Shown here: piece by piece, positions 34,792 to 50,980 of the stretch | How positions within the stretch are numbered: the first letter of the stretch is position 1 | Layout of the letters: every line of letters starts with the position of its first letter | Source of the DNA: an uncultured Clostridia bacterium | GTDB lineage: Bacteria; Bacillota; Clostridia; Oscillospirales; UBA644 | Direction: 5' to 3' | Length of the DNA: 54,564 nt | Assembly: GCA_944382895.1 (NCBI GenBank) | Contig: CALWNV010000003.1 | Location: 1-54,564 of the forward strand | Translations under genes and position numbers: made by a program | Notes under the pieces: generated by a model | What the model saw: only the letters and a program-made list of their open reading frames with translations | The model's database searches: none | Told to the model about the DNA's origin: nothing

Positions 34792-36535
34792 CAAAAGCAC
34801 CTCCCTGACCTATCTGCGATGAATAAATATCTTTATATATATCACTGCTTTGCATAAGCTCTTCATGAGTCCCTTCGGCAGATATCTTTCCTCCGTCCAT
34901 AACAATTATCTTATCTGCGGCCATAACAGAGGATATTCTTTGTGCAATCAGTATTACCGTCATATCTTTCATATCTGTCTTGAGCGCTTTCTTAAGACGA
35001 GCTTCCGTTCCCATATCAAGCGCTGATGTACTATCGTCCATTATAAGTATCTGCGGCTTTTTCAAAAGAGCTCTCGCGATACAAAGTCTCTGCTTCTGTC
35101 CTCCGGAAAGAGTAAGACCGCCCTGCCCCAACTCAGTATCGTATCCATCAGGAAACGCCTTTACAAAATCATCAGCCTGCGCGGTTTTTGCAGCGGCATA
35201 TACCTCATCATCAGAAGCTGAGGGATTTCCCCACCGTATGTTTTCGGCAATACTTCCGCTGAAAAGCACGGCTTTCTGCAAAACCATCCCGATTTTTTCT
35301 CTGAGAGTTCCCGATTTATAATCTTTTACGTCAATCCCGTCGACCAAAATCCTTCCCGAACTTACATCATAAAACCGCGGTATAAGATTTACAAGCGATG
35401 ATTTTCCGGAGCCCGTGGAACCGAGAATAGCTACTGTCTGTCCAGGCTTTATATCTATATTTATATCTCGTAAAACAGGATCGCCCATTGCTAACGGATA
35501 CTTGAACGACACATTTTCGAAAACTACCGAACTGCCTTTCGCGGGCAAAAATGAAGAAACGCAATCTTCCTTATCTTTAACCGAAGGTTCCGTCGCCATG
35601 ACCTCTTTTACGCGGTCATAAGAAGCTTTTGCTCTTGAAAGCATCATAAACAACATTGACATCATCATCATACTCATCAATATCTGAGTCATATATGTCA
35701 CAACCGAGGTCACCTGACCGACCTGGATCGCCTTCGCCTCAACCTGAAGTCCGCCAATATAAATAACGGCAACAACCGATCCGTTCATAAATAACATCAT
35801 AAGAGGACTCAAAAGAGCCATCATACGCATAACTTTAAGCGTGGTTTTAGTTAAATCATCGTTTACCGAAGAAAACTTCTCTATCTCATTTTCCTCTCGT
35901 ACATAAGCTTTTACGACTCTTACACCGGTAAGATTCTCCTGCGTCACCGCATTTAACTTATCAACAAATTTTTGCATTTTTGAAAATAACGGGCTTCCGA
36001 ATTTAGTTATCAAAACAACTATCGTAAGCATAATCGGCATTGATACAACTAAAATAAGCCCGAATTTAATATCCATGGAAAGAGCCATCACTATCCCGCC
36101 TATACACATAAGAGGGGTTCTTATAAGCATCCTGAGAGACATCATAAGAAGATTCTGAAGTTGCGTAACATCATTAGTAAGTCGAGTCACAAGAGAACCT
36201 GTGGAAAATTTATCGGTTTCGGCAAACGAAAATGTCTGGACCTTCTTAAACAGATCGCTTCTCAAATCTGCACCGAAATTCTGCGAAACCTTGCTGGAAA
36301 AATATGTACAGCTCATACCCCCGACCATACCGATAACAGCAAAAATAAGCATTTTAAGACTTGTCCACAGTATTACATCCATCCGGTTCTCAAGAATACC
36401 TATGTTTATAACATCCGCCATCAGAGCCGGCTGAAGAAGGTCCATGACAACCTCAACCATCATCGTCAAAGGCGCAAGTATTGCGGCAACTGCGTACGGT
36501 TTTATATAACCTGAAAGTTTAATTTTTTTGTTCAT
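34784..36535 (-). CDS. ABC multidrug-type exporter subunit A (degenerate ATPase site)
   Basis: GSTGSGKSS, LSGGQKQR, with degenerate IMDD and AQR motifs typical of heterodimeric exporters. Confidence 0.93.
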   Translation of the reverse strand: MNKKIKLSGYIKPYAVAAILAPLTMMVEVVMDLLQPALMADVINIGILENRMDVILWTSLKMLIFAVIGMVGGMSCTYFSSKVSQNFGADLRSDLFKKVQTFSFAETDKFSTGSLVTRLTNDVTQLQNLLMMSLRMLIRTPLMCIGGIVMALSMDIKFGLILVVSMPIMLTIVVLITKFGSPLFSKMQKFVDKLNAVTQENLTGVRVVKAYVREENEIEKFSSVNDDLTKTTLKVMRMMALLSPLMMLFMNGSVVAVIYIGGLQVEAKAIQVGQVTSVVTYMTQILMSMMMMSMLFMMLSRAKASYDRVKEVMATEPSVKDKEDCVSSFLPAKGSSVVFENVSFKYPLAMGDPVLRDINIDIKPGQTVAILGSTGSGKSSLVNLIPRFYDVSSGRILVDGIDVKDYKSGTLREKIGMVLQKAVLFSGSIAENIRWGNPSASDDEVYAAAKTAQADDFVKAFPDGYDTELGQGGLTLSGGQKQRLCIARALLKKPQILIMDDSTSALDMGTEARLKKALKTDMKDMTVILIAQRISSVMAADKIIVMDGGKISAEGTHEELMQSSDIYKDIYSSQIGQGGAFDD

Positions 36536-36993
36536 TGTTTAGAAGACCTCAACTTTTCAAGAATTCTGCGAAGTTCCGTTATCTCCTCCGGGGTAAGTGT
36601 CTCAAAAGTTTCTTTTTCCACCTGTTCAAAAGTCCGGCGAATCTTATCCGCGAGAGCTTTACCGCTTTCCGTCAAAAATATTCTGAACTGTCTCGCATCG
36701 CTTTCATGAGGCTCACGCAAGATATATCCGGAATCCTCCATCTTTTGAATAGTCACACTAACGGAAGAGGGTTTGAAAAACATTTTTTCGGCAAGCTCAC
36801 ATTGCGAAAGACCCTCATGGCGCGAAATTTCCGTAAGAACAGGACCAAAAGAATGCGGGATCCCTATTTTATCAAGCTTTTCCCTCGCATCACAACCAAA
36901 AAGATGGAAAACGACCCTTATAAGATGACTCAGCGGGACATCGTCATTCTCACTTATAAAGGGACATTCCGGGACCTTGTCATTATGTTTCAA
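36532..36993 (-). CDS. MarR-family transcriptional regulator
   Basis: LSQCELAEKM..KPSSVS..IQKME..GYI.R....DAR...I.LTESG; first gene of the ABC operon. Confidence 0.9.
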   Translation of the reverse strand: MKHNDKVPECPFISENDDVPLSHLIRVVFHLFGCDAREKLDKIGIPHSFGPVLTEISRHEGLSQCELAEKMFFKPSSVSVTIQKMEDSGYILREPHESDARQFRIFLTESGKALADKIRRTFEQVEKETFETLTPEEITELRRILEKLRSSKQ

Positions 36994-37216: not shown

Positions 37217-38101
37217 TCAAAATGCACAGCAAATATCAGAAAACGAAATATCATACCCGGCTGCACAGGCTTTTTTAACCGTTTTGGCAAAAGGATAAGC
37301 AATACCGGAAAAGCCCATATCAAGAGCTTTTTCTTCCAAGACCTCCGAGTAATATCCGGACGGACGCGCGCAACCGAGATAAAAAGAAGAACCGGGAAGT
37401 TTTTTCACCGCTGATTCAAAAAAAGACAAAACATCCTCAAGAGGCGGCGGCGAAGTTCTACTCATTTTTGTGCCGGACAACGGCTTAAGCACAACCAAAA
37501 CAAGTTTTTCGGGAGAAAACTCATAAACAATGTCAAGCGCAGCATATTCACCTTTTATTTTCCCGTAATCTAAACCGACTACTATATGAGGCGAACAACT
37601 GAGTCCGATTGTTTTCATACATTCAAGTCTTTCCGCATAATCTTCCGCTCCGGCATCTATGCCAAAAATATTTTTCACCGTTTCCCTGCTGCCGACAACA
37701 TCAAAAAAAACTGTTGAAACACCGCTCTCCTTAAGTTTATACAAAGTTTGAAAAGAAGGAAAACCGCAATGCACCGCAACTTTTATATATTTGCTTACTC
37801 TGCTTATAGATTCACAATAAGGAAGCAATTCCACTTCACCCGATATATTACATCCGCCGCTCAGCAAAATACCTTCGCAGCCTTCATCAATCATCTTCAT
37901 GCAAAGCGTCTCAAAATTTTGGGGATCAGAGCCGTCGAGCATATTTTTCAACATCTTCCCACCACAGTGAGGACAATCAAGTGCGCAGATATTTCCACTT
38001 ATACTCACCGAACGAAATTTTTTGCGGTTATTAAAATGAAACTCGTTTTCATAAAACTTTGCTCCCGGGGTAAAAAACGTTATCTTTTTCATTATCTGCA
38101 C
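37217..38101 (-). CDS. lipS1: LipS1-type radical SAM sulfur insertase (alternative lipoyl synthase subunit)
   Basis: CALDCPHC, LSGGC, PHIVVGL, GCARP and C-terminal CC, which are the motifs I recall for LipS1; adjacent to the lipoate ligase. Confidence 0.8.
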   Translation of the reverse strand: MQIMKKITFFTPGAKFYENEFHFNNRKKFRSVSISGNICALDCPHCGGKMLKNMLDGSDPQNFETLCMKMIDEGCEGILLSGGCNISGEVELLPYCESISRVSKYIKVAVHCGFPSFQTLYKLKESGVSTVFFDVVGSRETVKNIFGIDAGAEDYAERLECMKTIGLSCSPHIVVGLDYGKIKGEYAALDIVYEFSPEKLVLVVLKPLSGTKMSRTSPPPLEDVLSFFESAVKKLPGSSFYLGCARPSGYYSEVLEEKALDMGFSGIAYPFAKTVKKACAAGYDISFSDICCAF

Positions 38102-38109
38102 CCGACAAA

Positions 38110-39162
38110 TTACTGTTCACCGACAGCCATACGAACGGCATATACAAAATCCGACGGAATCACACCGGGTATTGCCCATTCCCTATTTTCAAAAAATTCT
38201 GTCGTCTTTTTCTCTATATCACAAATTCTGCAGTTTTTAAGTACACTCTCATAATCCTGAATAAGACGAGAAGGATACACAAAAAAATCCCCGTTTATAA
38301 CAGCCTGTGAAATATATGCTCTACCGTCCGTTATGATATAAACCCTTATACATCCTCCCGCCGCTTTGTAAACAGCACTACGGTATTGTTTTTTACTCTC
38401 ACGCGCATTACGGTATATCCACTCTTCACTTTCGAATTCTATCATATTCTTACTGTAAGACTCTTTTTCATACAAACTAAGTTCGCCGCACACATAATCA
38501 AACCCGAGGACGGAAGAAAACTCATTTATCAAAGCCTTTTTGAGACTAACAATATCCGGTACAGGAGCACACTCTCTCGAAAGCCATGTCATTCGTTCCC
38601 TAAAAGCGGATACCGCTTTATCTTTAAGTTTTTCAATGGGTGTATTAAGAGTTTTAAGCATCATCTCTATATCAAAATCGATAAGCAGGGAGCCGTGATA
38701 TAAAAACGTATCCCCTTCTTCTGTACCCCCGCTCCCGCTGACTTTACGTCCGTTTATTTCAATATCATTATGAGGACGGAACTCAGCAGCTATACCAAAA
38801 CTTTTGAGAGCATTTACACAACCCCCGCAAAGAGTTCGGTACATATTTTCAACCGTACTGCCCCGCAGGGCTGACTTCGGAGCAACCAGTTCCCATCCGA
38901 GAGCCCCCCTGTCCATTAAAATCGCGCCCCCTCCGGTGATACGCCTGTTGACCGGGATATCGTGTTCTTTGCAAAAATCAATTTTAACCTCATCTTCCAC
39001 ATTCTGATTATATCCCACAAGAATCACAGGCCGATCAAAAAACATAAATCTCAAGGTCGGAGGGGATTTTCTCTCATTAACGGCAGAGAGAATCGTTTTA
39101 TCTAAAGCCATATTTTCCGCAGCACCTATATATCCGGTATCTACAACACGCCATTTTTCCAT
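38110..39162 (-). CDS. lplA: Lipoate/octanoate:protein ligase, fused catalytic and accessory domains
   Basis: NMALD, PPTLRF, RRITGGGAI, NDIEINGRKVSG, HGSLL; C-terminal KAAGG...GDFF accessory domain. Confidence 0.9.
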   Translation of the reverse strand: MEKWRVVDTGYIGAAENMALDKTILSAVNERKSPPTLRFMFFDRPVILVGYNQNVEDEVKIDFCKEHDIPVNRRITGGGAILMDRGALGWELVAPKSALRGSTVENMYRTLCGGCVNALKSFGIAAEFRPHNDIEINGRKVSGSGGTEEGDTFLYHGSLLIDFDIEMMLKTLNTPIEKLKDKAVSAFRERMTWLSRECAPVPDIVSLKKALINEFSSVLGFDYVCGELSLYEKESYSKNMIEFESEEWIYRNARESKKQYRSAVYKAAGGCIRVYIITDGRAYISQAVINGDFFVYPSRLIQDYESVLKNCRICDIEKKTTEFFENREWAIPGVIPSDFVYAVRMAVGEQ

Positions 39163-39189
39163 ATAATCTTCCTTTTAAGAATTTTTTAT

Positions 39190-40206
39190 TCAGTACTTTA
39201 CAAGCTCTTTTTTTATTAGCAAAATATCCTCTGTATCAGGCGCAAACGGAAAATTTCGTATTTCCTCAGAAGGACGTTCGTTTCCAAACGGCCTGTTACA
39301 TGCAGCGCATTTTTCATCGCGTCCGGTACATCCAGATGTCCGGAACGGATATCCGCTTTCGACCGCTTCATTCATAACTGCATCGGAAACCCCGTATCCG
39401 GTGATCTTTCCGTTATGAAAAGTCATTTTATCCGCAGATGAATAGCCGTTATTTATAAGCCAACGGGCAAGCTGGACTCTTCGGTATTGCTCAACAGGCG
39501 GTTGTTTGCGCATACTTTCCCCACTTCCTCTTTCAGGAAAAAAGGAAAATAAATGTGTAGGAGCTCCGTATTCTTTCCATACATGATCAATCATCTTTAT
39601 CATTTCTTCCTCGGTTTCCCCCAAACCGACTATAAAATGGACACCTGCGTTACCTTTTCCGAAAACTTCTGCGGCATCTTTAAGACAGGAAAGATATTTA
39701 TCCCATCTGTGCGGCCCGTGTACGTTCTCGCCGCGGAATTTATCAAAAAGAACAGGAGTCGCTGCGTCTATCGCAATCCCGGATTTATCCGCGCCGGCGG
39801 CTTTCATTTTCATCATATCTTCTTTTTTTATAATTGTCGGGGACAATAAAACGCTCACGGGAAGTTTTGTTTTTTCTTTGATCTCCGTTATAATCGGCAA
39901 TATATCCGCCACACAGTCAGGATGTGTTATCATGGAAACACAAACTCTTTCAATATCGGAACAATTCGCAGCGGCATCCAATACTTCATCAAGTTTATAT
40001 ATAGGCCACGCCACACGGATAAATGTATCTGATTTTTCGCGCGAACGTGAAAGTCCGCAATAAGAGCAATTTGCTTTGCACCCTCCCTCGCAAAGCATAA
40101 GAAGATTAAGACAATGCAGTTTAGCGCCGCGGAAAAACAATCCGGGTTTCAACCCGACAGTCATTGCCGCAGCCATACTTATCTGAACAAATTCCGGGCT
40201 TGTCAT
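39190..40206 (-). CDS. lipS2: LipS2-type radical SAM sulfur insertase (alternative lipoyl synthase subunit)
   Basis: CKANCSYC, HFIVGLGETE, HLFSFFP, and C-terminal TSGC....CAACNRP (variant of TxGCPxCNRP). Start moved to ATG 40206 by RBS. Confidence 0.8.
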   Translation of the reverse strand: MTSPEFVQISMAAAMTVGLKPGLFFRGAKLHCLNLLMLCEGGCKANCSYCGLSRSREKSDTFIRVAWPIYKLDEVLDAAANCSDIERVCVSMITHPDCVADILPIITEIKEKTKLPVSVLLSPTIIKKEDMMKMKAAGADKSGIAIDAATPVLFDKFRGENVHGPHRWDKYLSCLKDAAEVFGKGNAGVHFIVGLGETEEEMIKMIDHVWKEYGAPTHLFSFFPERGSGESMRKQPPVEQYRRVQLARWLINNGYSSADKMTFHNGKITGYGVSDAVMNEAVESGYPFRTSGCTGRDEKCAACNRPFGNERPSEEIRNFPFAPDTEDILLIKKELVKY

Positions 40207-40222
40207 AACATGATATCCTTTC

Positions 40223-40258
40223 AAAAAATTCCGGGCGGCCGGCGCGCCGTCCACCCGG
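40223..40258 (-). terminator. GC-rich hairpin with T-tract inside the operon
   Basis: Minus strand CCGGGTGGACGG-CGCG-CCGGCCGCCCGG followed by AATTTTTT. Confidence 0.6.
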
Positions 40259-40271
40259 TAACTTATCATAA

Positions 40272-42206
40272 TCAGTGTCTCACATATTCTGTATGCAATA
40301 ACTCATGAGAAAGATGAGAACACGGCTTTCCGAGAAAATCTTCATAAATTTTCTTTATTTCAGGGTTCTCGTGCGATTTCCGTATCTCATGTTCATGATC
40401 GTCACGGTCAAGACCCTCTGTACGTTTTTTAGCTTTAACAGCGTTAGTAGTAAGGATCTGACCTCCTCCCCCGACACAACCTCCGGGACAGCTCATTATT
40501 TCTATAAAATGATATTTTGAGAATTCACCGCCGTTTATAATATCCTCGCATATCTTTCTGGCATTGCCAAGCCCGTATGCAACGGCGACCTTAAGTTCAC
40601 CGGCTTTTGTAGGCACGGTAGCTGTTTTTATTCCATCATATGTTCCCAACACACGTAAATCCATATCTTCCAAAGGTTTCTGCTCCACTTCTTCATATGC
40701 CGTACGCAAGGCCGCGGTCATAACTCCTCCTGTCCTACCGAAAATAGTCGCCGCACCTGTATAAGAAGACAACAGCGGATCAGGCGAACCCTCTTCCATA
40801 GCCGCTAAATCTATACCCAAAAGCTTAAACATCTTTGCGCATTCACGCATAGTAAGAACCGCGTCAACATCAGGATATTTGCCGTCGCCGTTCACGACTG
40901 AGGCATCTTTAAGCTCTTCACGCTTACATTCGTATTTTTTCGCCGTACACGGCATAACCGAAACCACAAACATCTTTTCCGGCTTGACATCACAGTTTCT
41001 CGCGCCATATGTTTTAGCGACAGCCCCGAACATCTGTTGAGGACTTTTAGCCGAAGATAAATTCGGGATAAGCTGAGGATAATATTTTTCCACATAATTC
41101 ACCCATGCCGGACAACATGAAGTAAACTGAGGGAACACTCCTCCGTTTTTAATACGACCGAGAAATTCGGTTCCTTCCTCCATAATTGTAAGATCCGCTG
41201 AAAAGTTGGTATCCCATACTCTGTCAAATCCCGCGGCACGAAAAGCGCTGTAAAGTTTTGCGGCAACATTTTCTCCGGGTTCCATACCAAACTGTTCGCC
41301 TATACCGGTTCTTACCGAAGGCGCGAATTGTACAACAGTAAACACTTCAGGGTCTTTAAGCGCGGCAATAACTGTTTCTGTATTATCCACTTCGCTCATC
41401 GCTCCGACAGGTCGTGAAAACGCGCAGTTTTCACATTTTGCAAGCGTCTTGACCATAGCGACCGTTTTATCCTGAAAACCAAGGGGACACGCCATTATGC
41501 ATTGTCCGCAACGCACACACCTGTCGCTGTCCATATCGACACCGAGATCACTTAAATGTATCGCTTCAATAGACTGGACCCTACAAGCCTCTACGCAACT
41601 TCCGCAACGTATACATTTATTGGGATAATAGTTTATCGACGGTTCTGTAGTTTTTGTAGGCAAACGCCTCTCTTTACGTTCCTGAAGGTCTACATGACCT
41701 CCGGCAGCAGCTTCACACGCAACAAATTCCTGCGCACATTGGATAAGAGGACATTCGGTACCGCGAAAATCAGGATCGTCACAAACAGGACATTTCTTCT
41801 TGATTTCGAGTTTGCCTAATTCTTTTATCTGAGAAGAAAACTCATCCATGACTTTTGCAAATTTTTCTCCCTCAGATGCCGATATCCATTCAAGGCGTAA
41901 TCTGCGGCGGTCAATACCGAGTTCATCAAGAAGAGGCTGGAACATTTCATATCTTGCAAGTGTTTTGAAGTTTCCGTTAGTGTAATGACAGTCAGACGGG
42001 ATATGGCAACCGGCAATCAGAACTCCGTCTGCCCCCTCTGCAAACGCTTTAAGAACAAACGAAGGTTCCACTCTTCCTGAACACATAACTCTGACAGCAC
42101 GCGCCGTAATATCGTGACGTATACGCGCGGTCCCGGCAAGATCGGCGCCCGCATACGAGCACCAGTTACACAAAAATTCAACTATCTTTGGTTTATATTC
42201 ACTCAT
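40272..42206 (-). CDS. MvhD-[FeFe]-hydrogenase fusion protein
   Basis: N-terminal MvhD domain (FLCNWCSY, RVMCSGRV, GCH...DCHY, RLEWISASE); two ferredoxin-type Cys motifs; intact H-cluster motifs FTSCCPAW, MPCTAKKYE, EIMSCPGGCVGGGGQ; C-terminal SHEN...LLHT. Start ATG 42206 by RBS. Confidence 0.93.
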   Translation of the reverse strand: MSEYKPKIVEFLCNWCSYAGADLAGTARIRHDITARAVRVMCSGRVEPSFVLKAFAEGADGVLIAGCHIPSDCHYTNGNFKTLARYEMFQPLLDELGIDRRRLRLEWISASEGEKFAKVMDEFSSQIKELGKLEIKKKCPVCDDPDFRGTECPLIQCAQEFVACEAAAGGHVDLQERKERRLPTKTTEPSINYYPNKCIRCGSCVEACRVQSIEAIHLSDLGVDMDSDRCVRCGQCIMACPLGFQDKTVAMVKTLAKCENCAFSRPVGAMSEVDNTETVIAALKDPEVFTVVQFAPSVRTGIGEQFGMEPGENVAAKLYSAFRAAGFDRVWDTNFSADLTIMEEGTEFLGRIKNGGVFPQFTSCCPAWVNYVEKYYPQLIPNLSSAKSPQQMFGAVAKTYGARNCDVKPEKMFVVSVMPCTAKKYECKREELKDASVVNGDGKYPDVDAVLTMRECAKMFKLLGIDLAAMEEGSPDPLLSSYTGAATIFGRTGGVMTAALRTAYEEVEQKPLEDMDLRVLGTYDGIKTATVPTKAGELKVAVAYGLGNARKICEDIINGGEFSKYHFIEIMSCPGGCVGGGGQILTTNAVKAKKRTEGLDRDDHEHEIRKSHENPEIKKIYEDFLGKPCSHLSHELLHTEYVRH

Positions 42207-42219
42207 ATCCAACTCCTCC

Positions 42220-44175
42220 TCAATCTCTCAAAAGTCCTTCAAGCTCGGCAAATATCTGCTCCGAGGAGAAGTGTCCCTGATTTATAGCTCCCGCAGGACA
42301 TGCGGCCGCACATGTACCGCAGCCGCGGCACTTAGTACTTTCAATACGCATGATTTTCGCGGCAGCGTCAAATTCAAGAGCCATATACGGACAAAGTCTT
42401 TCACACAAACGGCATCCCTTACACATATCAGGATTTATGGAAACAACCGTGGGTTCAAGTTTTACTTTGCCGATATTGAGGAAACGTATGACATCTCCCG
42501 CACATCCTTTAGCCTGACACACCGTATCGGGTATGTCTTTAGGTCCCTGCGCGCATCCAGCAGCATAAATACCGGCAGTTGGTGTCTCAAGAGGATTAAG
42601 TTTGGGATGCGCTTCCATAAAGAATCCGTCTTTTGTACGTGAAACATGCATCATCTCGGCAAGAGCGTCTGTATCCTCAGAAGGCTCAAGCCCTACGGCA
42701 AGGACTACCATATCCGCCTCAAGTTCGACTGTGGCGCCCATCAAAGTATCCTCTGCTTTAAGAAGGAGCCTATCATTTTCACTTTTTACGATTTCCGACA
42801 CTTTACCTCTTATAAAATGCACGCCCTCGCTTTGGATACGGTTATAAAACTCCTCATATCCTTTGCCTGCAGCACGTATATCCATATAAAAATTATATAC
42901 TTCCGCTCCAGTCTTTTCTCTTGCGAGATGCGCGTGTTTCAAGGAATACATACAACAGGCTTTTGAACAATACTCATTTGTATTTTTATCACGACTGCCT
43001 ACACAATGTATAAAAGCAATCGTCTTCGGCTTCTCGCCTTTCGATGTGACAATATGTCCCCCGGTCGGACCTGAAGCATTAGTCATTCTTTCATACTGCA
43101 TAGAGTCGATGACATCCGGATAAATCCCGAACCCATATTTGACAGTACGTGAGGCGTCAAAAATCTTAAACCCTGTAGCAAGGATAATCGCGCCTACTTT
43201 TATTTTTACGGTCTCATCTTTCAGATTGAAATCTATACAGCCCCTGTCACAGGCTTTTACGCAAGCCTGTGTACATCTGCCGTTTTTAAGATACAAACAA
43301 TTTACAGGATCTATAACAGCTTTAAGCGGAACTGCCTGAGGAAACGGTATATATGCCGCACCCCTGTTGGAAAGTCCGTAGTTGAACTCGTCCGGGATAC
43401 GGTCTTTCATAACACAGGCTTCAACACATTTTTTGCAACCGGTACAATCAGGTGTTGTATACCGTGTGTGTTTGATGACAGTCACAGTATAATTCCCGAC
43501 AGAACCCTCAACGGAAACTACTTCCGAATTCGTCATCAGGTCAATATTAGGTTCTCTCGAAACATCAACCATTTTGGGCATGAGTATACATGCCGAGCAG
43601 TCAAGGGTGGGAAAAGTCTTATCAAGCTGGGCCATAACACCTCCTATTGTCGGTTTTTTTTCAACAACATAAGTCTGATAACCCGATCTCGCAACAGTCA
43701 GCGCAGCCTCAATGCCGGCAACTCCCCCGCCTATAACAAGACATTTTTTCGTTATTGGTATCTCCTGAGTCTCTATCCGCTCATGGTGAGAAACTCTCGC
43801 AACCGCCGCACGAACAAGATCTTTTGCTTTTTGAGTGGCCGTCGGTATATCGGTACAGACCCATGAAACATGCTCCCGTATATTGGCCATCTGCATATAA
43901 TATGGATTAAGACCTGCTTCCTCCACAACTTTTCTAAAAGTAGGTTCATGCATCCTGGGCGAGCATGAAGCGACAACCACTCTGTTCAGTTTATAATTTT
44001 CTATATCTTCTTTTATTATTTTCTGTCCCGCGTCAGAACATGTATACATGTTATCTCTCGCGACAACTACATTATCAAGACCGCCCGCATATGCCGAAAC
44101 TTCAGGACAATCCACTGTTCCGCCTATGTTCGAACCGCAGTGACAAACATAAACTCCTATTCTCAATTCTTCCAT
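42220..44175 (-). CDS. hdrA: Heterodisulfide reductase subunit A (FAD, Fe-S)
   Basis: RIGVYVCHCG, ASCSPRMHE, ANIRE, IGGGVAG, KTFPTLDCSAC, CVGSRD, YCSKACC, GCAQGPKDI, C-terminal ferredoxin domain. Confidence 0.95.
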   Translation of the reverse strand: MEELRIGVYVCHCGSNIGGTVDCPEVSAYAGGLDNVVVARDNMYTCSDAGQKIIKEDIENYKLNRVVVASCSPRMHEPTFRKVVEEAGLNPYYMQMANIREHVSWVCTDIPTATQKAKDLVRAAVARVSHHERIETQEIPITKKCLVIGGGVAGIEAALTVARSGYQTYVVEKKPTIGGVMAQLDKTFPTLDCSACILMPKMVDVSREPNIDLMTNSEVVSVEGSVGNYTVTVIKHTRYTTPDCTGCKKCVEACVMKDRIPDEFNYGLSNRGAAYIPFPQAVPLKAVIDPVNCLYLKNGRCTQACVKACDRGCIDFNLKDETVKIKVGAIILATGFKIFDASRTVKYGFGIYPDVIDSMQYERMTNASGPTGGHIVTSKGEKPKTIAFIHCVGSRDKNTNEYCSKACCMYSLKHAHLAREKTGAEVYNFYMDIRAAGKGYEEFYNRIQSEGVHFIRGKVSEIVKSENDRLLLKAEDTLMGATVELEADMVVLAVGLEPSEDTDALAEMMHVSRTKDGFFMEAHPKLNPLETPTAGIYAAGCAQGPKDIPDTVCQAKGCAGDVIRFLNIGKVKLEPTVVSINPDMCKGCRLCERLCPYMALEFDAAAKIMRIESTKCRGCGTCAAACPAGAINQGHFSSEQIFAELEGLLRD

Positions 44176-44178
44176 CAG

Positions 44179-45381
44179 TTATCCCTCCAGCCTTTCGGCG
44201 AGAAATTCCGCAAGATCATAAACCTTTATACGGGCCCGGATACTGCGCGTGCCTTTCTGAAGAGAGCGTTTACATTGCTGACATGTCGTCACAATAGCCG
44301 AAGCACCCGTAGCAACTGCCTCAGACGCGCGTCCGGCAGAAATATTTTCGGCAAGCGAAGCATTCTGCATTTCTATATTTCCCCCACCGCCACAGCATTT
44401 ACTCTCATTTTTATTAAATCGCATTTCCTTTATGCGCGCACCGGTAAGAGAAATCAGCTGACGAGGTTCATCAAAAATTTTCTCCCCTTTACGTCCGAGA
44501 TCGCAGGGATCATGGTATGTAACCGTTTCATCTCCGTGTTTGAATTTCAAACGCCCTTCCTGAGCAAGCCGTAACAAATATTGGGAATAGTGAAGAATTT
44601 CGATATAATTGAATCCGGGAACATATTTCGTGTATACTTCCCTGAAAACATACAAGCATGTCGGACATGACATAACCACGGTTTCCGCACCTTTTTTTAC
44701 AAGTTCCGCATACGTATGTTCAGCATATTCCCTTAACGAATCCTCTCCCGCGCCGGAGCCGAGAAGAGGATAACCGCAACACCATTCTCCCTCACCTAAA
44801 AAACCCAGATCAATCCCGGCTTTTATAAGCATAAAAGAAAGCGACTGCGGTATTTTGTATGCCTGAGGAAACAACGCTGAAACACAGCCCGTATAGTAAA
44901 TCACTTTTGCTTTATCTTTTTTTAAGGCAGCTTCAACTTCCGACTTTCCTTCTCCCATATTGGAAAACCAAAGAGATCTGTTTTTCTGATCATCTCCGTT
45001 GATATTGCGTTTTTCCATGGCAGAAGCGATATTCGACTGATTTTCGGGAACACCGTTTTTACAGGTATACGCCTCGCGAAGCCTGAGAATTATCCTTGTA
45101 AGGGGGATCCCTCTCGGACACCGTGATTCGCAAAGTCCGCATGTTGTACAGTTCCATTCATTTTCCGAACCAAAGATCTCATCAGATCTGCCCATTTGCA
45201 GTAAACGCCAAAACTGACGGTGTGAATACCTGTTGCTCTCATTTCCGGGACACGTTGCAGAACAACTTCCGCATTGTATACAGGTATATATTTTCTCTCC
45301 GCCTTCTACATCTCGTATTATCCGGTCAAGATTTCTCTGTTCTTCTGTAATTTCGCTTATCCTGTAATGCAAAAATATCAC
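44179..45381 (-). CDS. HdrD-like protein (HdrC-type 2x[4Fe-4S] plus two CCG domains), next to hdrA
   Basis: CIQCGSCSATCP, CTTCGLCESRCP; GC..CCG..CPTC and DPC..CCG..CQQC. Start may be TTG 45372. Confidence 0.88.
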   Translation of the reverse strand: MIFLHYRISEITEEQRNLDRIIRDVEGGEKIYTCIQCGSCSATCPGNESNRYSHRQFWRLLQMGRSDEIFGSENEWNCTTCGLCESRCPRGIPLTRIILRLREAYTCKNGVPENQSNIASAMEKRNINGDDQKNRSLWFSNMGEGKSEVEAALKKDKAKVIYYTGCVSALFPQAYKIPQSLSFMLIKAGIDLGFLGEGEWCCGYPLLGSGAGEDSLREYAEHTYAELVKKGAETVVMSCPTCLYVFREVYTKYVPGFNYIEILHYSQYLLRLAQEGRLKFKHGDETVTYHDPCDLGRKGEKIFDEPRQLISLTGARIKEMRFNKNESKCCGGGGNIEMQNASLAENISAGRASEAVATGASAIVTTCQQCKRSLQKGTRSIRARIKVYDLAEFLAERLEG

Positions 45382-45385
45382 CCCG

Positions 45386-45814
45386 TCACTTTATATTGTT
45401 TTTTATCTCTTCTTCTTCGACAAATTTCGCGATTTCCTCCGCGTTATCAGTCGTCATGAATCCGTCTATATCCGACATATTGTCCGGCTTTATCTTTATA
45501 ACCCATCCGTCATCATACGGGTTTTCATTGAGCAAATACGGAAAATCTCCTAACTCTGCATTAGCCTCAATTATTTCACCGTTGACCGGAGCTTTGAGAC
45601 GCCCTACCCATTTCCCGCTCTCAATAGAAGCAAAAGGTTGACCCTCTTCTATTCTTCTGCCGGCGGCCGGGACTTCAACAAAAATGATTTCGCCCGCCAT
45701 TTGCTGAAACATGTCGGTAACGCCCATTATCAGAATATCTCCGTCTTTTTTCACCCATCCGTGATATTTATCGAACCGAAGTCCCTCGGGAAATTCATAC
45801 TTACCTGATTTCAT
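45386..45814 (-). CDS. gcvH: GcvH-like lipoyl-carrier protein
   Basis: H.WV, GVTD, IESGKWVG (lipoyl-Lys), APVNGEIIEAN, LNENPYDDGW. Start ATG 45814 after GGAGG. Confidence 0.9.
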   Translation of the reverse strand: MKSGKYEFPEGLRFDKYHGWVKKDGDILIMGVTDMFQQMAGEIIFVEVPAAGRRIEEGQPFASIESGKWVGRLKAPVNGEIIEANAELGDFPYLLNENPYDDGWVIKIKPDNMSDIDGFMTTDNAEEIAKFVEEEEIKNNIK

Positions 45815-45837
45815 TTTTATATACCTCCAAAAATAAT

Positions 45838-46986
45838 TTACTCCTCGCAAAGTTTGAACAATAACTCAGTTATATCAGCAACCTTTATACGTGTTCTTGT
45901 AGTTCTTGCCCCGGATTGCAAAGTCCTCCGACATTGTTGACAGCAGGAAACAATAGTTGTCGCACCGGTTTCAGCCGCTTGGGAAATTCTCAAAGCGGAT
46001 ACTTTACCCGAAAGAACAGGATCATTACTTTCCAGATTCCCGCCGCCGCCGCAGCAAACCGCGTCAACACGGTTTTTACGCATTTCCTTAAAAGTTATAC
46101 CGGGAATCGACGTAAGAATTTTTCTCGGGGATTCAAATATTCCGCTTTTACGTCCCAAATCGCATGGGTCATGGTATGTAACAGTTTCGTTGAGCTCTCT
46201 GGGATGAAGTTTCCCGTTTTCACAAAGTTCAGCCAAAAGCTCAACACCATGGATAACCTTTAAACCAGTTTCTTCTCCTAAAAGCTCGGGGTAATGATGT
46301 TTCCACATATAATAACACGAAGGGCATGTAGTCACTATCTTGTCTATTCCCAACTCTTTCACACATTTAACATTTTCACGCGCGACACTTTTAGCTTCCG
46401 ATTCCATCCCTCCTATAAAAAGAGGATATCCGCAGCATAGTTCATTTTCGCCCAAAACGGTAAAATCTGTGCCTGAAATACAAAGGAGCCCGACAAAACT
46501 CTGAACAACCGCATAGGAAGAGGGATAAAGAGATGAAACACAACCGGGAAGATAAAGATATTCGGCTTTCGCATTTATTTTAACATTGTATTTCTCCGAG
46601 AGATTCGCCAGCCATAACAGACGGTTTTTCTGCTCGTCACCGTTTACATTACCTGATTCAGTAATGTTTTTACGCATCCGTTCGCCTACGGCGGTCAGGC
46701 CGTACTTTTCATTGAGCGCGCAACGAAGTCTTTCTGCGATTTCAGGGATATGGACTCCGGGAGGACAATGTTCGCTGCAGGATCCGCATAATAAACATTG
46801 ATTTATTCTCGTTCGGAAAAGATCGCTTATATCATCCCCGTTCATGACTGCTTTGGCAAGCTGCATCCTTCCGCGCGCATTATATCCCTCATGTCTCGTT
46901 GCCTGATATGTTGGACAATATGCCTGACAATAACCGCATCTGACACATGTTTCTATTTCCTTAAGGATTTTTTCATCGATTTTCAT
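45838..46986 (-). CDS. GlcF/HdrD-like Fe-S protein (2x[4Fe-4S] plus two CCG domains), next to the dehydrogenase
   Basis: CVRCGYCQAYCP, ARGR, CLLCGSCSEHCP; GC..CCG..CPSC and DPC..CCG..CQQC; ATGA overlap with the dehydrogenase. Confidence 0.88.
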   Translation of the reverse strand: MKIDEKILKEIETCVRCGYCQAYCPTYQATRHEGYNARGRMQLAKAVMNGDDISDLFRTRINQCLLCGSCSEHCPPGVHIPEIAERLRCALNEKYGLTAVGERMRKNITESGNVNGDEQKNRLLWLANLSEKYNVKINAKAEYLYLPGCVSSLYPSSYAVVQSFVGLLCISGTDFTVLGENELCCGYPLFIGGMESEAKSVARENVKCVKELGIDKIVTTCPSCYYMWKHHYPELLGEETGLKVIHGVELLAELCENGKLHPRELNETVTYHDPCDLGRKSGIFESPRKILTSIPGITFKEMRKNRVDAVCCGGGGNLESNDPVLSGKVSALRISQAAETGATTIVSCCQQCRRTLQSGARTTRTRIKVADITELLFKLCEE

Positions 46987-48386
46987 ATCACGTCACCACC
47001 GTCAAAAGGAATAAGTTTGCCGGGATTCAATATATTATCCGGATCCAAGGCTTTTTTGATCTTACGCATAAGTCTTAACCCGCTGTCTCCGAATTCATCC
47101 TTCATATAATTTATTTTGGCGACGCCTATACCGTGTTCTCCGGATAAAGTCCCTCCGAGAGACAACGCCGCCGCAAAAATATCTTTTATCGCAGCCTCTA
47201 CCTTCTCCGACTCACCGTCACGAGAAAAATCAGCAAGGATAGTCGGATGAAGATTCCCGTCTCCTGCATGCCCGAAAGTTCCTATCGGGATTCCGTATTT
47301 CTCCGAAATGGCACTTACGGCTCTGAGCATTTCGGAGACAGCGGAACGCGGAACAGTAGCATCCTCTAAAATGGTAGAAGAAGCACGTTTTATAAGCGAC
47401 GGAAGAGCCGCGCGCCGGGCAGCCCACAAACTATCACGCTCCGTATCTGTATCCGCTCTCTCCGTCCTTTCCGCACCGAACTCTTTGCATATATCGACAA
47501 TCCTTTCCGCATCCCTTACGACTTCACCTTCAAATCCGTCTACTTCAATCAATAAAACAGCCTCTGCATCAACCGGAAGTCCTGCCCCTGTCGTCTCCTC
47601 AACACAACGGATCGTAGCGTTATCCATTATCTCAAGAGTCGCAGGAATAATATGACTGCGTATGATTGCGCTTATAGCTTTCCCGGCAGATTCAAGGTCC
47701 ATAAATACCGCCATCATGCTCCTGCGTGATTCGGGCAAAGGAATAAGACGAACCGTAGCCTCGGTTATTATACCAAGAGTTCCCTCAGAAGCCACAAAAA
47801 GCTGTGTCATTGAATATCCGGTAACATTTTTTACGGTTTTCCCTCCGAATCTTGAAACGTCGCCATCAGCCGAAACAACCTCGACGCCCATTACATAGTC
47901 TCTTGTAACGCCATATTTTACACCGCGAAGCCCTCCCGCACACTCAGCAATCGAGCCTCCCATGGTCGCACAATGAACCGTCCCGGGGTCAGGCGCATAT
48001 AAAAGACCGTGTTTTTTTGCTTCATTTATAAGGTCCTCAATAACTACTCCCGCTTGTACGGTAGCAGTAAGATTATCCTCATCTATCTCAATTATCTTGT
48101 TCATCCGGCACATCGAAATAACGATTCCACCGCCTACGGGGACCGTCCCTCCGCTTAAATTAGTCCCCGCCCCTCTGGGAAATAACGGAATCTTCTCTTC
48201 CGCCGCAATTTTTACGATTTCAGCAATCTGCTCCGTGGTCTCAGGCAGAACAACAGCAAGCGGAATATACGCATCCACATTCATTGTCGCATCAAAAGAA
48301 TAGCAAACAAGATCTTCATATTCCGTAAGTACGTTCTCCGCGCCCAATATCGCTTCAAGACGTTCTTTAAGCAGTTCAACAGTCAT
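46983..48386 (-). CDS. FAD-linked 2-hydroxyacid dehydrogenase (GlcD/LctD/D-lactate dehydrogenase family)
   Basis: PRGAGTNLSGG, PDPG, GGLRGVKYG, SEGTLG, EDATVP, GHAGDGNLHP, SGEHGIG, LNPGK. Start moved to ATG 48386. Confidence 0.92.
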   Translation of the reverse strand: MTVELLKERLEAILGAENVLTEYEDLVCYSFDATMNVDAYIPLAVVLPETTEQIAEIVKIAAEEKIPLFPRGAGTNLSGGTVPVGGGIVISMCRMNKIIEIDEDNLTATVQAGVVIEDLINEAKKHGLLYAPDPGTVHCATMGGSIAECAGGLRGVKYGVTRDYVMGVEVVSADGDVSRFGGKTVKNVTGYSMTQLFVASEGTLGIITEATVRLIPLPESRRSMMAVFMDLESAGKAISAIIRSHIIPATLEIMDNATIRCVEETTGAGLPVDAEAVLLIEVDGFEGEVVRDAERIVDICKEFGAERTERADTDTERDSLWAARRAALPSLIKRASSTILEDATVPRSAVSEMLRAVSAISEKYGIPIGTFGHAGDGNLHPTILADFSRDGESEKVEAAIKDIFAAALSLGGTLSGEHGIGVAKINYMKDEFGDSGLRLMRKIKKALDPDNILNPGKLIPFDGGDVI

Positions 48387-48442
48387 AAATCCCCCGCCTT
48401 TCATTTAATAAATCAGTATAAATTTATCGAAATATTCCATAT

Positions 48443-48488
48443 TTGATATATTGATATATATTTTACAACATATTTCATCCTGTGTCAA
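48443..48488 (-). promoter_or_regulatory. Sigma-A promoter of the dehydrogenase-Hdr-hydrogenase operon with a tandem repeat at the start site
   Basis: TTGACA (48483-48488)-17 bp-TAAAAT (48460-48465); direct repeat TTGATATA-TTGATATA at 48443-48458. Confidence 0.65.
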
Positions 48489-48801: not shown

Positions 48802-50280
48802 TCAAGATTTATTTTTTTTATAATCGGTTTCAGGTCCGTCTTCGGTACGCGGAAGCGCAATTACAAAAACTGCCCCGGTTTTCCCCATATCTTCCCCGTC
48901 TATCCCGAACGGTTTATTATATGCGTATATTTTACCTTTATGCCCCTCGATGACCGCTTTCGCTATTGCAAGACCAAGACCGTGTTTTCCTTTTTTCCCT
49001 TTATAAAAACGTTCAAAAACATGCGGCAGTTCTTCAGGATCAATTCCCGGCCCGTCATCAGAAACTACAATGAAAATATTTTGAGAAGAAACACCAAGCC
49101 TAACGACGACCTCACTTCGCGCAAAACGCAGACAATTTGAAAGTATATTCGTGATAGCTACTGTAAGATTCTCTCCGTCAGCAAAAATAGTTTCATTATG
49201 GAAATTAACTTTCCTAAGTTTTATATTCCCAGCAACCGCGATTCCCATAACACGATCAAACGCCTCATCCGTAATTTCCTGAATATTAACTTTACCGAAC
49301 CTGAGCATCCCGTAGGCAGTTTCGATCTTTGAAAGATACATAACGTCATTTATAAGCTTTTCAAGTCTGGAAACCTGAGCGAGTATAACATCGAGATTTT
49401 CATTTGTGTCCTCAAAAACCCCATCTTTTATACCTTCTACATAACCTCGCACGGACATCAACGGCGTACGAAGCTCATGAGAGGCGTTTTGCAAAAATAC
49501 TTTTTGATTCATGTCATATTCCTGTATGCTTTTTGCCATTTCGTCAATAGAGCAAGCAAGCTCACCGATTTCGTCTGTGGCATTTATAGGCACATCGACG
49601 TCAAAACGTCTGTTGGCAAGGAGATTTGCCCGTACTTTGAGCTTTTTGATATTCGCAGTTATGGTTTTCGCCATAAGCGTAGCTATCAATATCCCGAGAA
49701 CGGACGCAACAAGAATAGCAAAGAAATAAAGCCCTAAAGGCGTAGAAGCAAAGGAATAATTTGAAAGAGGCGCGAGAAGGACAAGATAGCCCACCGCATA
49801 TCCGTTAACACTCATACATTGCGTACACATAATCATCGTGCGGTTTTCTATCTTGATAAGCTTGGTACCGTCTTCCGAAACAAACGGAGCGAGCGCGTCA
49901 GGAGCCTGATCCTTGATGTTTGAAAATACACGTTTGAGCGCTCCTGCGTCACGGCTGTCAACATATTCTCCGTTTTCATCCAGAACAACTATGGAATAAT
50001 TACTGTCCGCTACCATTTCAAACATCGCGTCCATTGTATAATCATATCCGACAAAGTTGAGATAATACCCTGCAAGCTTTTCCGTTTTGCTCAAAAGGTC
50101 CCGCTGCACGGCCTGTACCACATAGTCTTCCAGAAAAAAAGAAACGAAACCGAGCGAAAGACCTCCTATAGTTACGATAAGAAACATAAAAATAAGTGTC
50201 AATTTCGCCTGAATCCCAAAATGAGGAATATGTTTTTTTACCCGCGCTTTTATTTTTGACAAAACACCGTTTTTACTCAA
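48802..50280 (-). CDS. Membrane sensor histidine kinase (HAMP, HisKA, HATPase)
   Basis: Two TM segments, ASHELRTP, NILSNCLRFA, DDGPG, FERFYKG, GLGLAI. Confidence 0.93.
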   Translation of the reverse strand: MSKNGVLSKIKARVKKHIPHFGIQAKLTLIFMFLIVTIGGLSLGFVSFFLEDYVVQAVQRDLLSKTEKLAGYYLNFVGYDYTMDAMFEMVADSNYSIVVLDENGEYVDSRDAGALKRVFSNIKDQAPDALAPFVSEDGTKLIKIENRTMIMCTQCMSVNGYAVGYLVLLAPLSNYSFASTPLGLYFFAILVASVLGILIATLMAKTITANIKKLKVRANLLANRRFDVDVPINATDEIGELACSIDEMAKSIQEYDMNQKVFLQNASHELRTPLMSVRGYVEGIKDGVFEDTNENLDVILAQVSRLEKLINDVMYLSKIETAYGMLRFGKVNIQEITDEAFDRVMGIAVAGNIKLRKVNFHNETIFADGENLTVAITNILSNCLRFARSEVVVRLGVSSQNIFIVVSDDGPGIDPEELPHVFERFYKGKKGKHGLGLAIAKAVIEGHKGKIYAYNKPFGIDGEDMGKTGAVFVIALPRTEDGPETDYKKNKS

Positions 50281-50980
50281 CTTTATCAGTCACCTTATAT
50301 CCATAACCCCAGACAGTTTCTATCCCAAAATCCATATTCGCCGCATCAAGTTTTTTTCTTATCCTTTTGACAAGGTCATCTACCGCTCTCGTATCACCTA
50401 CATACTGGTAATCCCAAATGTTTTTCAAAAGCTGATCTCTTGTAAAAACCCTGTTTTTATTTGTCACCATAAAATACAAAAAATCATATTCCATTGCAGT
50501 AAAATGTATCTCCGTTTCTCCGGAAGATTCTACTTTTACCACTTTTCTCTCAACCGGATATATCTTTATATCACGGCAGTTAGGTAAAGCGCCGGATTCC
50601 TTTTCCTTCATCATTCCGTCAACACGACGGAAAACAGCTTTCACTCTGGCAACCAGTTCTCTGGGAGAAAAGGGTTTCATCATATAATCATCAGCACCCA
50701 TTTCTATGCCGAGTATCCTGTCTAATTCCTCATCTCTCGCAGAAACGATTATAATCGGTGTATTTGCTTTTTTACGTATCTCGTTACAAAGTTCAAACCC
50801 GGACATACCGGGCATCATAATATCTATAACAAGCATGTCCGGCATCTCAGGAGAAAAAGCTTTAAGCGCATCTTCTCCGTTTTCGAACTCTTTAACGACA
50901 TATCCCTCTTTTTCCATATAAGAGCGGACTATCTGACGTATGTTTGTTTCATCATCCACAACAAATATTTTTTTAGGCAT
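50273..50980 (-). CDS. OmpR/PhoB-family response regulator
   Basis: VIDIMMP, GADDYMMKPF, RAVDDLVKRIR, TVWGYGY. Confidence 0.95.
   Translation of the reverse strand: MPKKIFVVDDETNIRQIVRSYMEKEGYVVKEFENGEDALKAFSPEMPDMLVIDIMMPGMSGFELCNEIRKKANTPIIIVSARDEELDRILGIEMGADDYMMKPFSPRELVARVKAVFRRVDGMMKEKESGALPNCRDIKIYPVERKVVKVESSGETEIHFTAMEYDFLYFMVTNKNRVFTRDQLLKNIWDYQYVGDTRAVDDLVKRIRKKLDAANMDFGIETVWGYGYKVTDKVE

Follow-up and report, generated by a model that had tools for sequence, protein, structure and literature searches.

The 54,564-nucleotide (nt) stretch of DNA analyzed here (the window; contig CALWNV010000003.1 of assembly GCA_944382895.1, from an uncultured Clostridia bacterium of the Oscillospirales lineage UBA644) carries on its minus strand a gene in which a full MvhD/FlpD [2Fe-2S] domain is fused in frame to an [FeFe] hydrogenase with all three H-cluster motifs. 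This gene lies directly downstream of hdrA, encoding subunit A of a methanogen-type heterodisulfide reductase (Hdr), in an operon that also encodes two HdrD-like proteins, a GcvH-like lipoyl carrier, a GlcD-like dehydrogenase, a lipoate-protein ligase, and two lipoyl synthases. The locus would be a variant of the HdrA-type bifurcating complexes, and it suggests an undescribed coupling of hydrogen to ferredoxin. On balance, and by a small measure only, sequence comparison and structure models lead us to favor the reading that the operon encodes an HdrA-based bifurcating or confurcating [FeFe] hydrogenase, which would use lipoyl-GcvH as its disulfide substrate and would be linked to a 2-hydroxyacid dehydrogenase.

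A predicted group A [FeFe] hydrogenase with a built-in MvhD domain

Translated from the minus strand, the fusion is a single uninterrupted frame of 644 codons that starts at ATG 42206. Its ribosome-binding site (GAGGAGG, 42215–42221) lies 8 nt before this ATG and overlaps the TGA stop codon of the preceding gene, hdrA, which ends 13 nt ahead of the fusion start codon. From the N to the C terminus, the protein comprises an MvhD/FlpD domain, a cysteine-rich linker, two [4Fe-4S] motifs, an H-cluster domain, and a tail resembling the hydrogenase small subunit:

40272–42206, minus strand: MvhD::HydA fusion gene, 644 amino acids, stop codon included in the coordinates
41814–42185, minus strand: FlpD/MvhD [2Fe-2S] domain (residues 8–131; Pfam E value 1.1e-46)
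41637–41813, minus strand: cysteine-rich linker (residues 132–190), with conserved C139, C152, and C164
41478–41630, minus strand: F-cluster ferredoxin domain (residues 193–243; two CxxCxxCxxxC motifs; Pfam Fer4 dicluster)
40464–41339, minus strand: H-cluster domain Fe_hyd_lg_C (residues 290–581; Pfam E value 4e-91)
41109–41123, minus strand: H-cluster motif TSCCP (residues 362–366)
40929–40955, minus strand: H-cluster motif MPCTAKKYE (residues 418–426)
40458–40502, minus strand: third H-cluster motif, ExMxCPGGCxGGGGQ, here EIMSCPGGCVGGGGQ (residues 569–583)
40281–40433, minus strand: C-terminal Fe_hyd_SSU-like segment (residues 592–642; Pfam E value 2.7e-23)

An initial annotation of this DNA had proposed that the N terminus forms a complete MvhD/FlpD domain, and the domain is indeed present in full. 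The Pfam FlpD profile is covered from its first to its last position (1–123 of 123), and residues 1–133 of the fusion align to residues 1–132 of the 140 in 5ODC_D, the solved MvhD chain of the Methanothermococcus Mvh-Hdr complex (E value 1.5e-49), in which all five conserved cysteines (C13, C16, C42, C67, and C73) are matched. The cysteine columns of this domain are invariant in an alignment of fusion homologs. The same annotation placed F-cluster motifs and all three H-cluster motifs, TSCCP included, in this one frame, which translation, Pfam, and the NCBIfam model TIGR02512 ([FeFe] hydrogenase, group A; 443.7 bits against a cut-off of 405.95) bear out. The F-cluster cysteines are C198/201/204/208 and C230/233/236/240, and the key residues of the H-cluster motifs, known as L1 (TSCCP), L2 (MPCxxKxxE), and L3 (ExMxCxxGCxxGG), are invariant in the 17 aligned fusion homologs and also across 63 sequences of the wider clade.

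Outside its MvhD part, the fusion has as its best solved relative HydA2 of the HDCR filament, followed by HydA1 of the bifurcating HydABC enzyme, and an AlphaFold2 model of the fusion (mean predicted local distance difference test score, pLDDT, 89.2; predicted template modeling score 0.88) resembles the folds of CpI and HydA1. The fusion scores below the cut-offs of the NCBIfam models for A6 and clostridial hydrogenases. HydDB subgroups A1 to A4 are defined partly via neighboring genes, and the neighbors found here, HdrA and LipS2, fit none of them, being neither HydB (A3), a GltD-like protein (A2), nor formate dehydrogenase (A4). A Pfam scan revealed no PAS or other sensory domain in the fusion.

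Five cysteines of the fusion lie outside the known cluster motifs and are invariant in the 17 fusions: C139, C152, C164, C258, and C261 (window 41637–41813 and 41424–41435). Across 63 sequences of the wider clade, C152, C258, and C261 are invariant, and C139 is at least 90% conserved. The five residues may bind an extra cluster between the MvhD domain and the F-clusters.

Independent contigs carry the same frame

The initial annotation called for a check of reads across 41780–41830 to exclude an artefact of assembly, and data of other origin show that the frame is none. An 8.8-kb contig from another study covers window positions 37612–46447 with 31 substitutions and 0 gaps. In a collection of 5.8 billion proteins, FlpD (PF02662) and the H-domain (PF02906) occur together in 35 of 120 clusters among the matches listed, under source names that read just "ferredoxin" or "[FeFe] hydrogenase, group A." A metagenome scan with residues 1–200 found 13 loci of this Clostridia-type fusion lineage, with 10 complete fusion open reading frames (ORFs), one frame cut after residue 200, and two that end at a contig edge just past the FlpD domain (181 and 148 amino acids open). 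This test of the junction is based on contigs, a run on raw reads having yielded 17, too few for the junction. The HdrA-fusion stretch was also present, at 0.90 or more of the sampled words, in 17 public runs from eight studies (seven without the possible source), mostly labeled as chicken gut or feces metagenomes.

The source genome (G000) is a metagenome-assembled genome (MAG) of 1.79 Mb in 122 contigs, estimated to be 92.8% complete. It carries hydE, hydG, and hydF together on contig C14 (476–4147), with scores of 506.6, 927.7, and 535.6 bits, all above curated cut-offs; the maturases thus lie elsewhere in the genome, where the initial annotation had suggested looking for them. The radical S-adenosylmethionine (SAM) genes downstream of the fusion were considered as candidates for HydE and HydG and rejected; they match LipS2 and LipS1 best, and the LipS2 gene, with only 18.3 bits, fails the HydE model. 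Five further Fe_hyd_lg_C loci are found in the genome (C27:12949–13803, C28:14792–15634, C28:9018–9680, C19:8991–9674, and C19:12282–12944).

The fusion gene lies next to hdrA or close to it

The operon comprises nine genes on one strand, in the order GlcD-HdrD1-GcvH-HdrD2-HdrA-fusion-LipS2-LplA-LipS1. From glcD to lipS1, neighboring genes overlap or lie 2 to 27 nt apart, with an overlap of 4 nt between the genes of GlcD and HdrD1. Besides the fusion, they are as follows:

46983–48404, minus strand: glcD-like FAD-linked (flavin adenine dinucleotide) 2-hydroxyacid dehydrogenase, 473 amino acids
45838–46986, minus strand: HdrD-like protein 1 (HdrD1), 382 amino acids, two [4Fe-4S] motifs and two complete CCG domains
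45386–45814, minus strand: GcvH-like lipoyl carrier, probable start ATG 45814, 142 amino acids, lipoyl lysine K68 (codon 45611–45613)
44179–45381, minus strand: HdrD-like protein 2 (HdrD2), 400 amino acids, two [4Fe-4S] motifs and two complete CCG domains
42220–44175, minus strand: hdrA, full-length methanogen-type heterodisulfide reductase subunit A, 651 amino acids
39190–40269, minus strand: LipS2-type radical-SAM lipoyl synthase, 359 amino acids (NF053743, 231.8 bits, cut-off 270)
38110–39162, minus strand: lipoate-protein ligase with LplA catalytic and LplB-like C-terminal parts, 350 amino acids
37217–38101, minus strand: LipS1-type radical-SAM lipoyl synthase, 294 amino acids (NF053742, 215.2 bits, cut-off 230)

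HdrA aligns over residues 1–651 to residues 1–652 of the 654 in the solved bifurcating HdrA, 5ODC_A (E value 1.3e-216). Because this alignment runs end to end, the full domain set is kept, including the inserted and the C-terminal ferredoxin domains. The source genome holds a single HdrA and a single FlpD, each inside the operon, and, at 92.8% completeness, gives no match to NiFeSe_Hases, the [NiFe] large subunit. Pfam scans of the operon and its neighbors detected neither a NuoF-like HydB nor a NuoE-like HydC in the operon, and no ferredoxin gene within it.

Among the metagenome loci, hdrA lies immediately upstream of the fusion in all 11 that include upstream DNA, and a lipoate ligase (LplA) comes after the fusion in nine of the 10 with downstream DNA. 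LipS2 and LipS1 follow in four loci, and in three others LipS2 reaches the contig end. Ahead of hdrA, the order GlcD/HdrD/GcvH/HdrD is retained wherever the contig extends that far (L123, L129, and L134). A second genome of the same genus (G001) encodes the fusion at 88% identity and retains the series from GlcD through HdrD, GcvH, HdrD, and HdrA to the fusion; its LipS2 gene is located 8.7 kb downstream on the same contig. The intervening segment of about 8.7 kb (G001:C26:19667–28382) contains no ORF resembling any protein of the source genome at an E value below 1e-20, and may represent an insertion.

The fusion is rare among species representatives, since it occurs only in these two genomes among the 41 relatives searched, and since a full-length match was obtained only for the source genome among the 401 genomes of a phylum sample (three candidates scored per genome). 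A further match in that sample, in G354, aligns from residue 65 in a frame of 582 amino acids. Fifteen other members of the 41 relatives have a stand-alone MvhD, and in the loci of five relatives at family or order level the gene order is a small HdrC-like gene, then HdrA, then MvhD on its own. A separate scan of genome contigs gave an FlpD match in none of 80 listed loci and is uninformative on how frequent the fusion is.

Alignment revealed a second group of fusions, of 765–773 amino acids, with about 90 extra residues after FlpD and with TSCSP in place of TSCCP. These belong to the Desulfovibrionales, some members being named as from Desulfovulcanus, and were found in four of the 301 genomes of one order. 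All three loci of this second lineage have a full-length hdrA of the methanogen type upstream of the fusion:

L207:9165–11480: hdrA immediately upstream of the fusion
L208:8923–11220: hdrC and hdrB between hdrA and the fusion
L209:8877–11276: hdrC and hdrB between hdrA and the fusion

Gene orders at these three loci are HdrA-HdrC-HdrB-fusion or HdrA-fusion-HydE-HydF. In a quick tree, used just for clade separation and subclade placement, all relatives, whether fused or unfused, group together in a single clade that excludes the source genome's other two group A hydrogenases (support 99), and the two fusion lineages fall into different subclades. The MvhD-tagged [FeFe] hydrogenase beside hdrA is thus a recurrent design, and this recurrence provides the strongest support for docking on HdrA. 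The initial annotation had predicted such docking and a role analogous to MvhAGD, a prediction with which all contextual evidence is in line: adjacency to hdrA, a full-length HdrA, and no [NiFe] subunit in the source genome.

Two further features of the second lineage were observed. TSCSP occurs in its fusions (P0025–P0033, P0037, and P0038) as well as in 24 of 32 unfused relatives; in CpI numbering, the second cysteine of TSCCP coordinates the [4Fe-4S] portion of the H-cluster. Fusion genes with TSCSP nevertheless adjoin hydE and hydF. Public annotations of Desulfovibrionales fusions (L208 G734:C1; P0107, P0124, and P0125) use internal starts, giving proteins of 549–631 amino acids against the 765–771 of the frame, and thereby hide the FlpD domain.

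A GcvH-like lipoyl carrier is encoded between two HdrD-type proteins

The wider operon, with GlcD, two HdrD-type proteins, a GcvH-like protein, and lipoate ligase, points to an acceptor side unlike that of Mvh-Hdr. HdrD1 and HdrD2 each contain two CxxCxxCxxxC motifs and two complete C..CC..CxxC CCG domains. The same set of CCG cysteines holds two non-cubane clusters in HdrB, according to the accessible part of the published account. The best NCBIfam matches of HdrD1 are TfrB-, LdhH-, and GlcF-like, every one under its cut-off, and GlcD likewise scores below the equivalog cut-off of TIGR00387 (glcD; 527 bits against 567.9).

The gcvH gene sits between the two hdrD genes, with junctions of 13 and 4 nt, a place that is retained in L123, L129, L134, and G001. 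Its product matches TIGR00527 with 111 bits (cut-off 115.85) and belongs to a small subfamily of 59 proteins at an E value of 1e-10 or lower, several of them on contigs that match fusion contigs in size; ESGKW, the motif that surrounds the lipoyl lysine, is unchanged in 46 of 46 subfamily sequences. The source genome encodes one GcvH, one LipS1, and one LipS2, each in the operon. A role for the GcvH-like protein in glycine cleavage was considered and rejected: no PF02347 (GDC-P) match, and hence no P protein, was found in the 92.8% complete genome, and PF01571 (GCV_T), for the T protein, matches there just a 21.5-bit stretch within a GTPase-like frame. Lipoate is used outside the operon too, as follows from an E2 acyltransferase with an N-terminal lipoyl domain (C16:11989–13350) and a second, short LplA-like gene (C6:9694–10404) in the same genome.

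A model of the HdrD2-GcvH complex obtained a score of 0.70, the best of three controls being 0.00; of 80 solved complexes 58 attain this pass mark, as do two of 110 mismatched pairs, counts that apply only approximately here because the alignments were of our own making. Agreement between the runs is at least 97% of contacts, with partner pLDDT values of at least 90. The modeled interface is formed on the GcvH side by residues 60–65, 68–70, and 72, including K68, and on the HdrD2 side by residues 170–175 and 337, adjoining the CCG cysteines C166 and C329/C330. The model thus supports docking of the lipoyl-lysine loop of GcvH at the CCG site of HdrD2. We know of no solved complex of this kind.

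Proposed mechanism and alternative explanations

In the mechanism that we propose, the operon products would act as a single complex, in which the fusion would be the catalytically equipped group A [FeFe] hydrogenase. Through its N-terminal MvhD domain, an adaptor of its own, the hydrogenase would dock on HdrA, as MvhAG does through MvhD in methanogens. Electrons would travel between the H-cluster and the HdrA flavin via the F-clusters and the MvhD [2Fe-2S] cluster, and at this flavin they would be bifurcated or confurcated between ferredoxin, by way of the ferredoxin domains of HdrA, and an HdrD-type module. The non-cubane clusters of HdrD would then reduce or oxidize the disulfide of the lipoyl arm on the GcvH-like protein, such that protein-bound lipoamide would replace the heterodisulfide of coenzymes M and B (CoM-S-S-CoB). 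The second HdrD and GlcD would tie the lipoyl dithiol/disulfide to a 2-hydroxyacid/2-oxoacid pair (lactate/pyruvate or glycolate/glyoxylate), and LplA, LipS1, and LipS2 would lipoylate the carrier. The net reaction, in either direction, would be:

2 H2 + Fd(ox) + 2-oxoacid <-> Fd(red) + 2-hydroxyacid (Fd, ferredoxin)

The lactate/pyruvate couple has a potential of about −190 mV and lipoamide one of about −290 mV. Values for the other couples, as they appear in the accessible part of the published source, are −414 mV for H2, about −500 mV for ferredoxin, and −140 mV for the heterodisulfide. With these potentials, the reaction from left to right would be about as favorable as that of methanogens, and the reverse would be feasible only at low H2. 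The part of the mechanism in which the lipoyl disulfide on the GcvH-like carrier replaces CoM-S-S-CoB as the high-potential partner, its arm swinging between the two HdrD modules and so linking H2 and ferredoxin to the 2-hydroxyacid/2-oxoacid couple, is more tentative than the proposal as a whole, and in our estimation falls somewhat short of probable.

Several observations weigh against the proposal. The step from lactate to lipoamide would be uphill by the potentials given above, a weakness of the scheme, and no lactate permease was found in the 92.8% complete source genome. GlcD, LipS1, and LipS2 lie just under their NCBIfam equivalog cut-offs, such that their exact functions are putative; the pass of the docking model reflects the model's own confidence only; and four short contigs identical to the operon in RNA libraries attest to its presence and are not proof of transcription. 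Other such observations touch the lipoate genes and the HdrD-type proteins. Given the E2 acyltransferase and the second LplA-like gene, the lipoate genes of the operon could serve general lipoylation; GcvH can be a lipoyl relay in Firmicutes, as the accessible part of the literature describes; LplA is absent downstream of the fusion at L133; and the CCG proteins GlcF and GlpC, the best-scoring named relatives of the HdrD proteins, are also found as plain electron-transfer subunits lacking a disulfide substrate.

These last points, together with the distance of 8.7 kb between the fusion and LipS2 in G001, favor the foremost alternative, in which MvhD still couples the hydrogenase to HdrA but GcvH, LplA, LipS1, and LipS2 are just a co-located lipoate-assembly cassette (for example, with GcvH as a relay to E2), and the HdrD proteins either relay electrons between GlcD and HdrA or have a different thiol/disulfide as their substrate. 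We regard this as unlikely, if well short of negligible. A mere cassette would fit poorly with the conserved position of gcvH between the hdrD genes, with its small subfamily having an invariant ESGKW motif of its own on contigs size-matched to those of the fusion, and with a docking model that places the lipoyl-lysine loop at the CCG site where controls score 0.00. The second LplA-like gene, moreover, could serve E2 from outside the operon.

Less probable still, with only a slim chance of being correct, is a linear chain without bifurcation, that is, a 2-hydroxyacid:proton oxidoreductase or an H2:2-oxoacid reductase in which HdrA is a wire and ferredoxin plays no part. It would account for the lack of a ferredoxin gene in the operon, and not every HdrA complex bifurcates; for HdrCBA-MvhD-MetVF, the accessible text describes the bifurcation partner as still unknown. 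However, HdrA matches the solved bifurcating enzyme in its entire architecture, including both the inserted and the C-terminal ferredoxin domains, and H2 evolution from lactate alone (−190 versus −414 mV) would be strongly uphill in the absence of a second low-potential donor. Finally, an artefactual fusion, a pseudogene, or an inactive hydrogenase with a sensory role, as the 122-contig MAG and the serine at the second cysteine of TSCCP in the related lineage might suggest, is highly improbable in view of the same frame in listed protein clusters, complete metagenome ORFs, and G001, the gapless independent contig, the 17 runs from eight studies, the intact H-cluster motifs, the lack of a sensory domain, and the presence of HydEFG.

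Surroundings of the operon

Upstream of glcD, the best site of the region resembling a sigma-70 promoter is listed below; the number of such sites is not above that in shuffled sequences, and the site serves as a lead only.

48460–48488, minus strand: possible operon promoter, TTGACA-17-TAAAAT (11 of 12 positions), 56 nt upstream of glcD

A gene for a MarR-family regulator (36532–36993, minus strand) lies 223 nt downstream of lipS1, and a histidine kinase and response regulator pair (48802–50980, minus strand) lies upstream of glcD. By position, either the MarR regulator or the two-component pair could regulate the operon. Farther away, a protein of 594 amino acids with Radical_SAM_N and DUF3362 domains (31144–32928, minus strand) is encoded between a two-component system and an ATP-binding cassette (ABC) transporter pair.

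Implications

Two routes of bifurcation between H2 and ferredoxin are established: a [NiFe] Mvh hydrogenase on HdrA in methanogens, and an [FeFe] HydA on a NuoF-like HydBC core in bacteria. The Clostridia locus and the Desulfovibrionales lineage suggest a third combination, an [FeFe] hydrogenase wired to HdrA by a fused MvhD. With it, bifurcating [FeFe] hydrogenases would have a second route, independent of HydABC. Within the Clostridia lineage, a lipoyl carrier with its own lipoylation enzymes always accompanies the module. Lipoate-dependent Hdr chemistry has so far been known only in aerobic sulfur oxidizers, and the proposed mechanism, if true, would extend it to fermentative gut anaerobes. 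It would also provide HdrD-type CCG proteins with a defined, protein-bound disulfide substrate, and lipoate with a third role besides the oxidation of 2-oxoacids and glycine and that of sulfur. With near-identical sequence present in chicken-gut and feces metagenomes of several studies, the module may matter for gut H2 and lactate turnover.

Comparison with known systems

A full-text literature search, with supplements and two likely reviews outside its scope, turned up no account of either an MvhD-[FeFe] fusion or an operon of the GcvH-HdrD-HdrA-hydrogenase type; among the matches listed, none combined GcvH, HdrD, and GlcD. Parts of the locus nevertheless have counterparts in five systems. 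With the GlcD-HdrD type of 2-hydroxyacid dehydrogenase (GlcDEF glycolate oxidase and the GlcD/HdrD pairs of archaeal MAGs) it shares a GlcD-like gene abutting an Fe-S/CCG gene, whereas here this pair shares its operon with GcvH, a second HdrD, HdrA, and a hydrogenase. The HdrCBA-MvhD-MetVF methylene-tetrahydrofolate reductase of acetogens, as far as the accessible text describes it, likewise combines a bacterial HdrA with an MvhD adaptor; there, however, MvhD stands alone and carries no fused hydrogenase.

Among the HydABC/Bfu enzymes, HydA1 of T. kivui HydABC (8A6T_A; E value 5.1e-116) is the second-best solved relative of the group A H-domain and its best fold match, and a ferredoxin-coupled role in H2 metabolism is a likely common trait. 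The locus does not belong to this family, as it lacks HydB and HydC, and bifurcation would here occur at the FAD of HdrA instead of the flavin mononucleotide (FMN)/FeS center that the accessible text describes for Bfu.

The sulfur-oxidizing sHdr-LbpA systems, with their sLpl(AB)/LipS1/LipS2 lipoate assembly, are marked by a short HdrA and by the sulfur-trafficking genes DsrE/TusA. The HdrA encoded here is of the long methanogen type, and 6TJR (349 amino acids), the sole structure match of the sHdr type, covers only residues 324–561 of it; HdrB and HdrC are fused here, and no sulfur-transferase or sulfur-trafficking genes were found among the operon neighbors scanned. Having neither a short HdrA nor sulfur-trafficking features, the locus is no member of this group, from which its link to an [FeFe] hydrogenase and to GlcD, and its origin in a MAG of anaerobic gut Clostridia, also set it apart. 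The likeness is nonetheless extensive: in the accessible text of the two reports (Cao et al. 2018, PMC6067878; Tanabe et al. 2023, PMC10332631), one sHdr-LbpA locus combines two HdrB/C-type modules, HdrA, a GcvH-like lipoate-binding protein, a lipoate ligase, and LipS1/LipS2, and glycine cleavage partners are lacking in both cases. That of Cao et al. (2018, PMC6067878) mentions an EtfBA-linked Group III in Firmicutes and, within this text, no hydrogenase-linked form.

Of MvhAGD-HdrABC of methanogens (PDB: 5ODC), finally, the locus would be a functional analogue; it is not a member, as it has no MvhA or MvhG. It differs in having an [FeFe] instead of a [NiFe] hydrogenase, a fused MvhD, and an attached GlcD, and the CoM-S-S-CoB of methanogens would have its counterpart in lipoyl-GcvH. 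Both systems share full-length homologs of the MvhD domain and HdrA, together with HdrC-like and HdrB-like (CCG) parts, which are fused here as two HdrD-type proteins, and both would follow the same proposed logic, from H2 through MvhD to the HdrA flavin and from there to ferredoxin and a disulfide.

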